A program made the position numbers and the translations under genes. Of a stretch of DNA of 52,532 nucleotides, positions 7,497 to 12,123 are shown in pieces (position 1 is the first letter of the stretch; each line of letters opens with the position of its first letter). The notes below the pieces were generated by a model. It was not told the DNA's origin. It saw nothing but the letters and a program-made list of their open reading frames with translations, and did not search any database. Source of the DNA: Arcobacteraceae bacterium (GTDB taxonomy: Bacteria; Campylobacterota; Campylobacteria; Campylobacterales; Arcobacteraceae); assembly GCA_048268245.1 (NCBI GenBank), contig JBLWVX010000017.1, positions 1 to 52,532 of the forward strand. The letters run 5' to 3'.

Positions 7497-7822
7497 TAAG
7501 GTAAACCAGACAATAGCTTGAACTTATGTTCAAGAGGAAAGTCCGGGCTGCAGTGAAGTATGGTTCCATTTAGAGAATGGCTAGGGTAACCTAAGGGATA
7601 GTGCAACAGAGAGTAGACAGCCGATTTGTCGGTGATGGTGAAACGGTGAGGTAAGAGCTCACCAGACTTTTGAGTAATCTTAAGTGCTTTGTAAACCCAA
7701 CCAGCAGCAAGAAGACCCGGTATTTACTTCACATTTTTGGTCTTCGCAAGATTAGCTAAGTAATTTGCTAACTAGATAAATTATTGTCTTAAAAACAGAA
7801 CTCGGCTTATTGGTTTACCTTA
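7497..7822 (+). ncRNA. rnpB: Ribonuclease P RNA (bacterial)
   Basis: Universal motifs GAGGAAAGTCCGGGC, AGTGCAACAGAG, GTAAACCC, ACAGAACTCGGCTTA; terminal P1 pairing TAAGGTAAACCA (7497-7508) with TGGTTTACCTTA (7811-7822). Confidence 0.97.
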
Positions 7823-7827
7823 TAACT

Positions 7828-7914
7828 TTACAATGATTTACAAACACTTACAAAATAAGCCTTTATTAAAAAATATACCATTATAAGATTATTATTGAAT
7901 TACATACAATTACA
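7828..7914 (+). repeat. 10-bp-phased short direct repeats immediately after rnpB
   Basis: TTACAA at 7828, 7838, 7848; AATTACA at 7898, 7908. Confidence 0.6.
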
Positions 7915-8023
7915 ATTATAACCGTGTTAATAACTTAATACTGTTCATTTTTAACACTGTGAAGGAAAAATATAGCTTAAGTTAAACAAAATATGATGGA
8001 TTTTAATCTTCAAAGTCTTAATT

Positions 8024-8743
8024 ATGAAAGGTTCGAAGAATGAATTTGATACAATTCCAGTTATGAAAATTAGTGAATTAAAAGAAGCAGAGCGGATAAA
8101 AATATCATTGTTAAAATATATCTATAAAAATACAAAAGGTAGATACATCGCAGTTCCTGAAGTATCTCTTCCTCAAAGTATTGCTGATATACTAGTTACA
8201 AATGGAGATATTCATATCTATGAAATAAAATCAAAAGCAGATAGTCTAGTAAGACTGGAAAAACAGATAAATGATTATAAAAGATTTGCACATAGAGTAA
8301 CAGTTGTAGCGGATGAAAAATTTATTAGTAAATTAGATACTTTAGATTTTATGAAAGGTGTTGGTATTATATCAGTTAATAACAGATATAGTCTTAGGCA
8401 TATTAGAGATAGTAAAAAGTTTGAAGTTGGTAAGAATTTTTATTTAGCGTATTGGAGTCCTATTGAATTAAGAGAGAGTTTAAGAGGATTTGAAAAGTGG
8501 TATAAATACTCCACAGATGAAGCATATGATAAAATATTAGATTTATTAAGTGAAGAAGAATTGAGAAAAGTAACTTTATTTAGATTAAAAGAAAAGTATA
8601 TTAAAGAACATTTAAAAAGAAAAGATTTAATTACAGATAAAGATTATGAAAGAGCTCTTCTTTCTAGATTTAAAGACTTGGAAGATTTAAGTATTACTCC
8701 ACTTAAATATCTTCCAGCATATGTTTTTAGAGATTTTGACTAG
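8024..8743 (+). CDS. sce7726-like PD-(D/E)XK nuclease-fold protein
   Basis: VPEVSL...IADILVTNGDIHIYEIKSKADSLVRLEKQINDY..F..VTVVAD matches the sce7726-type E..AD..YEIKS..D...RL..Q...Y pattern as recalled. Confidence 0.78.
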   Translation: MKGSKNEFDTIPVMKISELKEAERIKISLLKYIYKNTKGRYIAVPEVSLPQSIADILVTNGDIHIYEIKSKADSLVRLEKQINDYKRFAHRVTVVADEKFISKLDTLDFMKGVGIISVNNRYSLRHIRDSKKFEVGKNFYLAYWSPIELRESLRGFEKWYKYSTDEAYDKILDLLSEEELRKVTLFRLKEKYIKEHLKRKDLITDKDYERALLSRFKDLEDLSITPLKYLPAYVFRDFD

Positions 8744-10179
8744 ATTTTTATAAAATTATGAATAATTGAAAAGGCATTATGTCTAAAACATAACGTTTTT
8801 ATAATTCCAGGTGTTGTTATTTCAGGATAAAAATCTTTTAGTGAAATATCAGCATCACATATTTTTTCATTCATAAACATTGAACCATGTTTATCATAGT
8901 CAAGTATACCCTCTGCAATATCTTGAAGTAGTTTTTTCATAGAATGTTTATATCCTAGTTTAGTTCTACCTGTATTTCTATCTCGTGTTACATCATCTTC
9001 ACTCCATCCTCTTCTTATCAGTAATTTCATAGAACTATCTAAGCTAGATAAAACTACACGAGCCGTTCCTCTTCCTCCTGAGGGCATTTCAGTGATTGTT
9101 TTTCTATCAAAACCACAGTAGTCACCATAACCTATTTCTTTTTCAATTGCTCTATCTTGAACTATAGATTCATAAACAAGTAATGGTTGGTTTGAATTTA
9201 TAATATTTTCATTTGCATCATCTCTTGCAATGGATATATCATCTGTATTAAATTGTGCTCCTAAATATATTATATTTACAAATTGATATTTAGCTGCCTC
9301 TTTTATGTAGTCTTTTATTATTGGTGTATTAAAGTTTGTGTTTAAATCAAATATTAAATGAATATCATGAATATCTACAATCTCTTTAATATGTAGTAAG
9401 AAGCTACTTGGTTCTGAAACTCTTAATGCAATTTCAGCATATTCATTGTTTAGTCTTCTTATGAAAGATTCAAAGTCTTGAATATTCGCATTTTTACCTT
9501 CCCACTTAAATACAGGAATTATTAATTCTTTCTTTTCAATCATTTTTAAATGATTTATTTTTGAGTCGATTTTTAAAAATTTTTCTATAGGTTTAGGGAT
9601 ATTTGTAACCATTTTACCTAGCTCTTTTTTTTCATTTTTTCTAGCTATTTTAGCATCTTCTCTTTGTTCTTTATTTGTCATTTCTTTCATAGATGAAATA
9701 TCTAGGAAATGTTTCATATCAATTAATTCATCATTTAAATATGATGCAAATTTATCTTCATTTTCAATATCTAGTAAAGGGATTACTTTTTTATTTGTTA
9801 ATTCGAATAGTACTGTACTAGTAGTATTTGTATATGCTAATGTTGGAACATAAAGGTTAATCTCTAAATCCTCTATTTTTTCATCATTAAAGTACTCTTT
9901 TTTATTATCAATAAAAATCTCAAAATCATTTATTTCATCAGTATCTTCATCTGTTTCAATAATAATATATGTACCAATATTTGATGAGTTAATCATTATT
10001 GAGTAAATAATATCATTATATTCAAATTCTTCTTTAGTTGTTACTAAACTATCTTTATTTTTTTCTGCTTCATTTGGGGCAGGAATGTTAAAAGAATCTA
10101 TACCTTCTCCATTGCACATAATAATCGCTTTTGCATTTCCAAAAGTTCTTATCGAAGAATTAAAATCTATAAAACTCAT
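8740..10179 (-). CDS. Beta-family (P4 beta / sce7725-like) protein with an acidic N-terminal extension
   Basis: C-terminal about 290 aa has IIPV, IALRV, HLIFDL, YGDY then 'MPSGGRG' and terminal H, as in Beta_protein-type proteins; convergent with the sce7726-like gene. Confidence 0.65.
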   Translation of the reverse strand: MSFIDFNSSIRTFGNAKAIIMCNGEGIDSFNIPAPNEAEKNKDSLVTTKEEFEYNDIIYSIMINSSNIGTYIIIETDEDTDEINDFEIFIDNKKEYFNDEKIEDLEINLYVPTLAYTNTTSTVLFELTNKKVIPLLDIENEDKFASYLNDELIDMKHFLDISSMKEMTNKEQREDAKIARKNEKKELGKMVTNIPKPIEKFLKIDSKINHLKMIEKKELIIPVFKWEGKNANIQDFESFIRRLNNEYAEIALRVSEPSSFLLHIKEIVDIHDIHLIFDLNTNFNTPIIKDYIKEAAKYQFVNIIYLGAQFNTDDISIARDDANENIINSNQPLLVYESIVQDRAIEKEIGYGDYCGFDRKTITEMPSGGRGTARVVLSSLDSSMKLLIRRGWSEDDVTRDRNTGRTKLGYKHSMKKLLQDIAEGILDYDKHGSMFMNEKICDADISLKDFYPEITTPGIIKTLCFRHNAFSIIHNFIKI

Positions 10180-10748
10180 ATGTTTACCCCCATTTTTTTA
10201 AGTCTATATTTCATTGCAGTTTTTGAAACATCGAACTTTAAAGATAGTTTCTCAATGATTTCATCTTTACTAAAATTACTATTCTCTTCTAAAATCTTTT
10301 TAGTTTCTTTTGTTATCAGTTCCGAAGGCATTAGTAATTGAGAAGCAAAACTATTTGCTTCCATTTCTATATGATCCCAGTTATCATCTCTATAATAAGT
10401 GATTTCACTATCTTCAATACTTCTATTTTTTGATAAATCGTTTTCAGGAGCTATATGAAGCATAAAGTGACCTAGTTCATGTGCTAATGTGAATCTTATT
10501 CTTTCTCTCATAGTAGTTTTCATAGGATTTATCCAAATCTCAGGTTCATTATCTTTTACAGAAATCATCCCATCTAGTTTTATCTTTTTAAAATTAGGTT
10601 TTTTATTTAATTTAATATTTAGATAGTTAATAATAGTATCTATTTCTATTGGAAGTTTTAAATTAAAATCAGGTTGACTTTCTAAAAAATCTAATAAATC
10701 ATAAGCAGAAGTTTTTTGCTTTAAGAAGTTTAAATATTTTTTTTCCAT
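10176..10748 (-). CDS. ImmA/IrrE family zinc metallo-endopeptidase (no N-terminal HTH)
   Basis: RIRFTLAHELGH (HExxH), EMEANSFASQLLMP, FDVSKTAMKYRL. Confidence 0.92.
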   Translation of the reverse strand: MEKKYLNFLKQKTSAYDLLDFLESQPDFNLKLPIEIDTIINYLNIKLNKKPNFKKIKLDGMISVKDNEPEIWINPMKTTMRERIRFTLAHELGHFMLHIAPENDLSKNRSIEDSEITYYRDDNWDHIEMEANSFASQLLMPSELITKETKKILEENSNFSKDEIIEKLSLKFDVSKTAMKYRLKKMGVNI

Positions 10749-10750
10749 AA

Positions 10751-11326
10751 TTATTTACCTCCAAATAATTCATTTAAAGCATCTACACTTTTAGATTCTT
10801 CAAGTTTTTTATCAATCATTGTATAAATATTATTCTTCATATCATCAAGTTCTTTATTAAAATGTGTTGTTTTTTCTTTTAACTCTTTTTCAAAAGCAGC
10901 TTTTTGAGCCCTAGTAAGTTTTGAAATATGCTCTTCAAGAATTTTTTCACCGTTTGATTGAGTGATAATTTCTTTTAGTACTTCATCTTTTAATTTTTTG
11001 TCTTTAAGAAGTGCTTCAACAATATCTCCAATATTATCCCTAATTATATCTACTTTCTTTTCAGAAACAGTTTTAGCAAACCAAATACTTGCAAGAGTTA
11101 TAATTAAAGTAATAGCAACTAAAATAAATGTAACAAAAACCATGAATGTATTTGCAAGTGAAATACTATCCATTGGGTTACCTATACTCATTCTTCCCAT
11201 ATATTTATTTACTAAAATAAGTACTACGAAAACAGTTATAAATGTAATTATTATTTGAGCAACAAATAAACTTAGGTATTTTCCCATAGAAATGCCATTA
11301 AAGATTTTTTTATTTTTCATATTCAT
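10751..11326 (-). CDS. Hypothetical membrane protein (2 TM + C-terminal coiled coil)
   Basis: Two long hydrophobic segments in the N-terminal half, charged helical C-terminus; 2 nt from the peptidase gene, same strand. Confidence 0.75.
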   Translation of the reverse strand: MNMKNKKIFNGISMGKYLSLFVAQIIITFITVFVVLILVNKYMGRMSIGNPMDSISLANTFMVFVTFILVAITLIITLASIWFAKTVSEKKVDIIRDNIGDIVEALLKDKKLKDEVLKEIITQSNGEKILEEHISKLTRAQKAAFEKELKEKTTHFNKELDDMKNNIYTMIDKKLEESKSVDALNELFGGK

Positions 11327-11501
11327 AATTCTATTATATCTTAAATATTGTAATTTTATAATAAACTAAAATCCATTAAGTTTTTAGTATTTATTATACA
11401 AGAAATTTTAAATAGCAATGAAATCACATTTCTTTGATAAGATATAAAAATTGATTAAGGCTTATATGATAGCTTAAAAGAAAAAATTAATATTACTCTT
11501 T

Positions 11502-11723
11502 TTAGTAAGGATTGATTGATAAGACATGATTTATATGTTTTTTAGAAAAGTTTTCAATTTCAATTTTATTTGATTCTGTTTGAATAGTATCAATTGCATA
11601 TTTTTCAAGTTCAGTATATGATGTGTTCTTTTTAAAAAGATCGCATAGTTGTTTAACAGTTAAATGATTTTTTTTATTGCCAATAGAGTTATTTACAGTT
11701 GATAATAACATTGGATTAAACAT
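11502..11723 (-). CDS. Small hypothetical protein, possibly a fragment
   Basis: 73-aa ATG ORF; no recognised motif. Confidence 0.45.
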   Translation of the reverse strand: MFNPMLLSTVNNSIGNKKNHLTVKQLCDLFKKNTSYTELEKYAIDTIQTESNKIEIENFSKKHINHVLSINPY

Positions 11724-11880
11724 AATATATCTTTCATGAATTTAATATAATTAAAAATTATAAAGGATTTGAAATGTCAAACGATAGATGATATATTGTA
11801 CATATAAACACCCAAAAGTAAGCTCTAATAAAAAATCTTATATAATCAAAACTATCAAAAGTCTAAAAAAGAGATAATAC

Positions 11881-12123
11881 ATGAGAATAAACAACAATAC
11901 TATATCAACACCAAGCCAGCCTGATTTTAACAGACAGGTTCAAAGAGCAGAGCAAGTAAATAGTTCTACTTCTAGTAGAGTTGGAAATGCTTACAGTGTT
12001 AGTATTAGCAATTGGGCACAAGATATTATGAGCCAGTTCAAAGACGAAGAAGTTGCTATTTTTAACTCTGATGTATTATCTTATAACAGTAACTTAGACT
12101 TGATTATGAAACAAAAAGTATAG
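11881..12123 (+). CDS. Small hypothetical protein
   Basis: 80-aa ORF after an AGAG-type RBS; N/S/T/Q-rich N-terminus and a YSVSISNWA segment. Confidence 0.55.
   Translation: MRINNNTISTPSQPDFNRQVQRAEQVNSSTSSRVGNAYSVSISNWAQDIMSQFKDEEVAIFNSDVLSYNSNLDLIMKQKV

Follow-up and report, generated by a model that had tools for sequence, protein, structure and literature searches.

A diverged, peptidase-bearing relative of the gop-beta-cII cassette in Campylobacterota

We analyzed a four-gene locus at positions 8024–11326 of a 52,532-nt stretch of DNA (hereafter the window; positions 1 to 52,532 of the forward strand of contig JBLWVX010000017.1, assembly GCA_048268245.1) from an Arcobacteraceae bacterium. 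Three minus-strand genes, encoding a protein with two predicted transmembrane segments (hereafter the 2TM protein), an ImmA/IrrE-type peptidase, and a Beta-like protein, run into a convergent plus-strand gene for a nuclease resembling cII of satellite phage P4. By sequence comparison, this cassette is a diverged, mobile, peptidase-bearing relative of gop-beta-cII and not a new category of module. From its sequence and by analogy with characterized systems, we think it probable, with somewhat better than even confidence, that it defends against phages by abortive infection and belongs to the Beta/TIM-B class, as do gop-beta-cII and PD-λ-2. The evidence comprises the homology of three of the four proteins, their intact catalytic motifs, the synteny, mobility, and patchiness of the cassette, its company of defense and mobile-element genes, and a predicted interface between the peptidase and the Beta-like protein.

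A four-gene cassette with a conserved arrangement

The nuclease gene (239 aa) occupies 8024–8743 on the plus strand, and the three minus-strand genes lie at 8740–10179 (Beta-like protein, 479 aa), 10176–10748 (peptidase, 190 aa), and 10751–11326 (2TM protein, 191 aa, the first gene of the operon and a putative membrane effector). These open reading frames (ORFs) were found in the sequence where the original prediction, made from the letters of the window, had placed them, as were the junctions between them: a 2-nt gap between the 2TM and peptidase genes (10749–10750), a 4-nt overlap between the peptidase and Beta-like genes (10176–10179), and a CTAG common to the stop codons of the two convergent genes (8740–8743). 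Because the convergent stops share these letters, there is no space for a terminator between the nuclease and Beta-like genes, and a terminator scan found no terminator-like site at the overlap.

The same four genes were expected to co-occur elsewhere, and they do. All 13 related loci with space for four genes (L003, L004, L005, L006, L007, L033, L034, L039, L042, L043, L044, L045, and L049) carry the 2TM, IrrE, and Beta genes followed by a convergent cII gene; as order and orientation are the same in every one, the arrangement is not due to chance. Seven shorter contigs (L002, L009, L040, L041, L046, L047, and L048) fit this order, with L046 offering just 473 nt upstream of its IrrE gene and no detectable 2TM ORF there. 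The junctions are retained along with the genes. The start–stop overlap of IrrE and Beta recurs throughout the related loci, and the 3′ ends of Beta and cII overlap by 4–23 nt in 17 of the 18 copies in which both ends are visible, the sole exception being a 57-nt gap in L040. At the DNA level, the window resembles its closest copies over 8036–11183 only, a span limited to the four genes. An exhaustive phmmer search with the Beta-like protein returned only 27 representatives; at 90% identity its relatives form 44 clusters, of which the named ones are Campylobacterota (Aliarcobacter, Arcobacteraceae, Sulfurovum, and Sulfurimonas). One Campylobacteraceae metagenome-assembled genome holds a degraded copy (L008:7001–7915), in which Beta persists as fragments in several frames and a short cII fragment is left.

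This layout is also that of P4, where gop-beta-cII protects against phages λ and P1 and where Gop, in the absence of Beta, is toxic (PMC9122126); the original prediction had given the anti-phage role and the toxicity of Gop correctly. According to a further report, a phage gene triggers the toxicity of gop-beta-cII (10.1101/2023.04.06.535777); the system is named Rst_gop_beta_cII in DefenseFinder (10.1101/2024.10.26.620412) and gop_beta_cll in PADLOC. We surveyed 35 canonical Beta loci from IMG/VR using custom hidden Markov models (HMMs). Convergent cII directly follows Beta in 33 of the 33 loci with space downstream, often with overlapping ends (L071, which is cut, and L083, which ends at the contig end, were left out of this count). 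Thus the geometry proposed for the window, with effector and Beta co-directional and cII convergent, matches P4 and is kept in the 13 variant and 33 canonical loci alike. On the other side of Beta, 29 of the 33 canonical loci with space upstream encode a protein of 111–161 aa with at least two hydrophobic segments, and a Gop profile recognizes 19 of these 29. In L079, L082, and L084 Beta comes immediately after an S24 repressor gene, with no gene for a small membrane protein, so Beta and cII can exist without a Gop-like partner.

Proteins encoded by the cassette

The plus-strand gene, described at the outset as an sce7726-like PD-(D/E)XK nuclease, proved to be one. Its product scores 89.1 bits against the NCBIfam sce7726 model NF033832 (cutoff 70), matches the PADLOC cll model (3.2e-20), and is homologous to P4 cII, with 26% identity over ~220 residues by BLASTP (E = 1e-13). 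P4 cII itself belongs to this family, as the original prediction had suggested: its RefSeq name is 'sce7726 family protein', and it scores 151.4 bits against NF033832. We aligned 13 sequences, namely nine Campylobacterota copies, P4 cII, and three sce7726 proteins from E. coli, Shinella, and S. aureus plasmids. D55, E67, and K69 are invariant across all 13, indicating an intact PD-(D/E)xK site, and E46, D73, R77, and Q81 are invariant as well. Plasmid loci of Shinella and Rhizobium (L036:3692–6558 and L037:3722–6552) hold co-directional triads of sce7726, sce7725, and a RES-family NAD+ phosphorylase. As sce7725 shows no similarity to Beta by Pfam or our HMMs, these triads indicate that the sce7726 nuclease also pairs with other cassettes. 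We had considered sce7725 as a relative of Beta and rejected it, as it matched neither Pfam nor our Beta HMMs.

The identification of the 479-aa protein as Beta-like held up by four routes. A profile that included its distant representatives aligned in hhalign to canonical Beta (an alignment of 25 sequences) at 92.2%, with E = 5.9e-7 over 263 columns and residues 108–421. A distant relative, P0066, found at 2.5e-8 to the query, passes the Pfam Beta_protein cutoff with 29.2 bits. Third, when the window protein and canonical Beta were modeled with AlphaFold (AF2; pLDDT 88.3 and 90.6, respectively), both models had A0A5J6TRS2 as their top match in BFVD (E = 1.5e-10 and 3.6e-12), and for both the matches that follow are orders of magnitude weaker. 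Strand-end motifs are collinear and invariant in the two families (Y-x-P, IPL, LDL, IPV, IRV, D, and YGD). Fourth, residues 103–479 of the model form a (β/α)8 TIM barrel (Z ~13). Foldseek against the PDB returned nothing at E ≤ 0.001 and weak TIM barrels only; a PDB profile search with the Beta-like alignment gave 0 matches at E ≤ 1, and direct BLASTP found no significant similarity to P4 Beta (best E = 0.45). On the basis of sequence profiles and predicted structures, we regard the 479-aa protein as a distant homologue of Beta, and not a member by curated thresholds.

By hhalign and the AF2 model, the Beta/TIM-B barrel and its C-terminal helices span residues 106–479 (8740–9864, minus strand). 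Residues 1–105 (9865–10179) form, in the model, an extra, beta-rich N-terminal domain, with strands at residues 2–91. This region has no counterpart in P4 Beta, whose residue 10 aligns to residue 110, and gave no usable match in a protein atlas. Conservation is lower here than anywhere else in the protein, with a majority-residue frequency of 0.41 versus 0.55 for the barrel. At the other end, the clade has conserved C-terminal helices of its own (K461, C464, H467, and N468), and a polar constellation of Y110, H157, D353, K461, H467, and N468 is invariant. Several cysteine and histidine residues missing from canonical Beta are kept in the variant clade (C355 in 28 of 33 sequences, C441 in 24, C464 in 30, and H467 in all 33); from the alignment, positions 355, 441, 464, and 467 might constitute a metal site.

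The longest alignments to both Beta models came from TGT-family chains. For the window model, 3unt_A aligned over 266 residues with a Z of 12.1; for canonical Beta, 1iq8_A aligned over 265 residues (Z 13.1), the DpdA chain 7ui4_A over 273 (Z 12.4), and 3unt_A over 279 (Z 11.5). These Z values are tied with those of unrelated TIM barrels, so that the model comparison is consistent with a TGT relation of the Beta barrel and does not discriminate. Such a relation would suit a modification–restriction-like pair, in which a TGT/DpdA-related barrel, acting as a nucleobase-transfer enzyme, would mark the nucleic acid of the host and so leave unmarked phage DNA as the target of the sce7726 nuclease, with the 2TM protein and peptidase as accessory regulators. 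In its favor are the length of the TGT alignments, the invariance of the polar constellation, a nucleobase-transfer activity proposed in a recent preprint (10.64898/2026.10.19.760177), and the pairing of Beta with cII, an invariant core present in 33/33 canonical loci and in every variant locus. However, the tie in Z with unrelated barrels speaks against it, as do the lack of preQ0 or deazapurine synthesis genes in the cassette, the report that P4 Beta counteracts Gop and not cII (PMC9122126), and convergent overlapping transcription, which is unusual for restriction–modification pairs. We consider such a pair quite improbable, and abortive infection remains our preferred account of the cassette.

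The middle gene of the operon encodes, as anticipated, a stand-alone ImmA/IrrE (M78) zinc metallopeptidase. Its 190-aa product scores 51.9 bits against Peptidase_M78 (PF06114; cutoff 22), and Pfam detects no helix-turn-helix (HTH) family in it. The peptidase motif H90-E91-x-x-H94 and E128 are invariant among eight orthologues. Among PADLOC models, capP is the best match (1.4e-28), with further matches to RmrA and PD-Lambda-2_B (3.3e-8); of the last, the peptidase domain covers only positions 250–375 of 402. Against the spr1629 model the protein scores 50.7 bits, below the cutoff of 335.

Translational coupling of the IrrE and Beta-like genes led us to put this protein pair through complex prediction. 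Three runs gave scores of 0.69, 0.70, and 0.72, and the best control 0.00; 116 of 157 solved complexes attain this score mark, but only 2 of 215 mismatched pairs do, a calibration that is rough here because custom alignments were used. Contacts agreed by at least 89% between runs, and the pLDDT of the partner was at least 83. On the IrrE side, the predicted interface comprises residues 49–57 and 75–79, including the invariant residues P51, F53, K55, and K57, none of which belongs to the catalytic motif. On the Beta side it comprises residues 118–125, 152, and 442–462, thereby including the C-terminal helices, and conservation at D442 and T462 exceeds 90%. These models support a predicted binding of IrrE to the Beta-like protein.

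The first gene of the operon encodes a protein with hydrophobic segments at about residues 14–44 and 52–88. Its N-terminal tail has 4 K/R and no D/E, and its helical C-terminal tail of 98 residues (94–191) has 19 K/R and 21 D/E; by the positive-inside rule, the C-terminal tail would be cytoplasmic. Conservation is highest in the second hydrophobic segment ('ANTFMVFVTF', 0.62) and lowest in the tail (0.39). Within the tail, N98 is invariant just past the second segment, in a motif (I/L)-x-(D/E)-N-x-x-(D/E/K) at residues 94–106, and the rest is poorly conserved; judged by its conservation, this juxtamembrane motif is a candidate contact or cleavage site. In a protein atlas the 2TM protein met unnamed clusters only, the best at 0.93, with recognition under the usual mark. 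Gop of P4 is likewise built as a 2TM hairpin (about residues 5–24 and 31–47) with a charged helical tail, which makes the window protein an architectural analogue of Gop. The Gop family is narrow, its 26 clusters coming from Enterobacterales and Aeromonas. The original prediction had contrasted the occupants of the gop slot with Gop, and this was right in part: a peptidase gene has been inserted and there is no detectable homology to Gop, but the 2TM and charged-tail architecture is the same. The true differences from P4 are the inserted peptidase gene and the extra N-terminal domain of Beta.

Mobility, genomic company, and a proposed mechanism

In the window, the cassette lies on an accessory island inserted at the 3′ end of rnpB, the RNase P RNA gene (7498–7825, plus strand; Rfam RF00010, 256 bits, E = 2.5e-82). 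The island's left junction is at 7823 and its right junction at 11802. In a sister species (G057) that lacks it, the match to the left flank ends at 236584 and the match to the right flank starts at 236583; as the flanks abut there, the window carries an insertion of 3,978 bp (7824–11801). We saw no target-site duplication at the junctions and no integrase ORF within the 4-kb island. The source genome has one copy of the cassette. Of 183 genomes of other species in the family, 3 gave strong matches and 2 marginal ones, and none of five genomes of the same genus had one, in keeping with the expectation that the set would prove accessory and patchy. A tblastn search of 72,556 plasmids with the Beta-like protein gave no match.

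The DNA upstream of the operon (11327–11801) lies inside the insertion and presumably holds the promoter; a promoter scan was uninformative, with 34 promoter-like sites versus 35.9 expected. A 73-aa ORF in the island, orf73 (11502–11723, minus strand), was considered as a hidden HTH partner and rejected, as it is unconserved, with no homologue in the related loci and no Pfam family match. An 80-aa ORF (11881–12123, plus strand) adjoins the island boundary and matches no family. In other genomes the same rnpB site holds ~1.4 kb with a response-regulator-PAS gene (G058), ~2.5 kb with a Cache histidine kinase (G059), or a ~37-kb prophage with integrase, GmrSD_N, RiboL-PSP HEPN, and PemK genes (G055).

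Elsewhere, the cassette travels with several kinds of element. It is cargo of Tn7-like elements (with TnsA, a Mu-type transposase, TniB, and TniQ) in L005, L006, and L033, and in the integrative or conjugative islands L034, L042, L043, and L044 it has integrase, resolvase, TrbL, PBECR3, PIN, TacAT, and pPIWI-nuclease genes nearby. Restriction–modification genes adjoin it in L006 (Dcm and Vsr), L033 (two Eco57I-type methylases), and L045 (N6_Mtase). Being nearly always on or beside mobile elements and toxin–antitoxin genes (TacAT, PIN, and PemK), the cassette could be a toxin–antitoxin or addiction module that stabilizes its carriers, with the 2TM protein or the nuclease as toxin, Beta and/or the peptidase as antidote, and no direct anti-phage role. 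Gop and Beta are reported to behave as a toxin–antitoxin pair (PMC9122126), and PD-λ-2 is described as toxin–antitoxin-like (PMC9519451). Yet the window cassette stands alone beside rnpB, with no element to stabilize, and both characterized relatives are reported to protect against phages. Toxin–antitoxin function and abortive infection are, moreover, not mutually exclusive. We judge a purely stabilizing role unlikely and continue to favor anti-phage defense.

Two copies lie in prophage immunity regions, directly after the gene of a cI-type S24 repressor (L039:2916–3593 and L049:4144–4755, the latter an IMG/VR contig). Among the canonical loci, prophage gop-beta-cII-type cassettes (L053–L084) likewise lie directly downstream of, and co-directional with, a gene for a cI/LexA-type repressor with HTH and Peptidase_S24 domains; of the 19 upstream proteins put to Pfam, 17 were S24 repressors, and the others were an integrase and a protein with nine transmembrane segments. 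A position behind the cI-type repressor of a prophage is that of rexAB behind λ cI. With a repressor gene in front, an ImmA/IrrE peptidase might act as an anti-repressor switch for element induction or transfer, as in ImmA/ImmR and IrrE/DdrO, with the other genes as passengers. Peptidases of this family classically cleave Xre-type repressors, and capP is the closest PADLOC model. Against this, the conserved gene set has no HTH gene, the adjoining repressors have S24 self-cleavage domains of their own and occur in only 2 of the 13 loci, and the cassette moves among unrelated element types and is alone in the window. We regard a switch of this kind as very unlikely indeed, and return to abortive infection.

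Taking P4 and PD-λ-2 as guides to a defensive role, to the toxin, to the peptidase substrate, and to the trigger, we propose the following mechanism. The 2TM protein would play Gop's part, as a membrane-permeabilizing toxin with a cytoplasmic regulatory tail. In uninfected cells, the Beta/TIM-barrel protein would bind the cytoplasmic IrrE zinc peptidase via its C-terminal helices and keep the system silent. A cue of infection, sensed by the variable N-terminal domain of Beta or by a ligand site in the barrel, would lift the restraint on the peptidase, which would then cleave a cytoplasmic target. The simplest such target would be the tail of the 2TM protein, which is poorly conserved and whose cleavage would unleash the membrane effector. 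The convergent sce7726/cII nuclease may be a second effector, a transcript-level regulator, or both; because the convergent genes overlap, the nuclease mRNA must overlap the 3′ end of the operon.

A more specific version is possible, and we hold it to be doubtful. The transglycosylase relatives of the barrel are reported to use a C-terminal extension to position a macromolecular substrate (10.64898/2026.10.19.760177). By speculation, the peptidase could be such a client: docked by its invariant P-x-F-x-K-x-K loop on the C-terminal helices of Beta, IrrE would be held inactive by binding or by a covalent nucleobase-type modification, until a phage cue acting via the fast-evolving N-terminal domain freed the protease to clip the 2TM tail and thereby make the 2TM protein an effector that breaches the membrane.

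Several observations weigh against reading the locus as a Beta-class defense system of this design. The 479-aa protein scores 20.6 bits against Pfam Beta_protein (PF14350), under the 27-bit cutoff, and only 4 of 39 members of its family match that model at E ≤ 0.01. None of the window proteins matches the PADLOC beta, gop, or PD-Lambda-2_C models at E ≤ 0.1, and a narrow profile of the window clade aligned to canonical Beta in hhalign at only 50.8%; because the PADLOC beta and PD-Lambda-2_C models miss the protein, the link to Beta rests on profile–profile and structural triangulation. The complex score is a model confidence from custom alignments, of which that for IrrE has only eight rows, and since the predicted interface does not include the peptidase active site, it carries no information on the substrate. 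The 2TM protein matches no Pfam, PADLOC, NCBIfam, or PHROGs family and shows no detectable homology to Gop in hhalign (2.3%), and its toxicity is assumed by analogy. The roles could be wrongly assigned, as the toxic part of PD-λ-2 is reported to be the peptidase and not the upstream gene. Finally, the 3′ end of rnpB is a variable insertion site in the genus and not a dedicated defense hotspot, given that it is occupied by a response regulator in G058 and by a histidine kinase in G059.

If the more specific version, with the peptidase as client of the barrel, is correct, the cassette would act as a membrane suicide switch gated by a protease and would provide a first mechanistic handle on how Beta restrains toxins, a question dating from 1990. 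The Beta-centered systems gop-beta-cII and PD-λ-2 are experimentally proven anti-phage systems. The clade described here displays the full ground plan, with membrane effector, peptidase, barrel, and overlapping convergent nuclease, in one strictly conserved cassette, and the predicted contact between peptidase and barrel offers a concrete protein–protein lead into the mechanism of Beta. The clade has diverged past the curated models that we used, with PADLOC cll the sole defense-system match for the three core genes. It extends the Beta class to Campylobacterota, a phylum in which, to our knowledge, few defense systems have been studied, and it places the class as cargo of Tn7 elements and behind prophage repressors.

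Comparison with known systems

P4 gop-beta-cII resembles the window cassette in having a small membrane-protein gene, Beta, and convergent cII. The two cII proteins are homologous, the Beta barrels distantly so, and the first gene has the architecture of Gop; the position behind a cI-type repressor in prophages is also shared by the prophage copies of the variant. In contrast to the window, P4 has no IrrE gene between the membrane protein and Beta, and P4 Beta lacks the 105-residue N-terminal domain and is conserved differently at its C-terminus. In P4, cII and Beta are separated by a 27-nt gap with an annotated terminator, whereas in the window their stop codons overlap. Host range differs as well, the variant being found in Campylobacterota and Gop being confined to Enterobacterales and Aeromonas.

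PD-λ-2 is described as having three genes, of which the first is HigB-like, the second encodes a peptidase fused to an Xre HTH, and the last is 'related to a P4 phage antitoxin' (Vassallo et al. 2022, PMC9519451); P4 Beta matches the PADLOC PD-Lambda-2_C model at 8.1e-14. The same paper reports that the HTH-peptidase is toxic alone and that the Beta-like gene is required for defense against λvir. As in the window, an ImmA/IrrE peptidase gene directly precedes a Beta-like gene, so the peptidase-then-Beta pairing has been experimentally validated in PD-λ-2. The first gene of PD-λ-2 is HigB-like, while that of the window encodes a 2TM protein and the island has no HigB-like ORF. The PD-λ-2 peptidase is fused to an Xre HTH, unlike the window peptidase; the text of the PD-λ-2 paper describes no cII or restriction endonuclease (REase) gene, and PD-Lambda-2_C models do not match the window Beta-like protein.

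Two further comparisons concern single genes. CapP/CapH, ImmA/ImmR, and IrrE/DdrO have peptidases of the same family, sharing the HExxH...E motif, and capP was the best PADLOC model; unlike CapP/CapH-type pairs, the window has no gene for an HTH substrate, and no CBASS or other regulated operon is nearby. The sce7726-sce7725-RES cassettes of Rhizobiaceae plasmids have an sce7726 nuclease with the same invariant residues, but their genes are co-directional, with a RES NADase as effector and an sce7725 protein that shows no similarity to Beta in the Pfam and HMM comparisons.

The closest description is a preprint on TIM-B systems (bioRxiv 10.64898/2026.10.19.760177, 22 Oct 2026), in which Beta is renamed 'TIM-B' and related to deazaguanine transglycosylases. 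Its effectors include Gop, as a predicted 2TM permeabilizer, and a second 2TM family, '2TM-B'; it also reports that a metallopeptidase gene, in some cases with an HTH, can separate the effector from TIM-B, and that an REase gene can overlap TIM-B convergently, as in P4. Three of its features are seen in the window, namely the TIM-barrel core, the metallopeptidase between effector and TIM-B, and the convergent overlapping REase, and the window 2TM family is, like '2TM-B', distinct from Gop. Every element of the cassette is therefore already in print, as comparative genomics only. In the preprint's text on these systems, the four parts are not presented together as a single unit, and there is no mention of an N-terminal extension of TIM-B or of a complex between TIM-B and the peptidase. 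The cassette thus does match a described system in part, through this preprint and at the level of in silico description only. Its novelty is lower than the original prediction of a new module had supposed, because PD-λ-2 already pairs an IrrE peptidase with Beta and the preprint describes the elements; what stands of that claim is a diverged variant of gop-beta-cII with an inserted peptidase.

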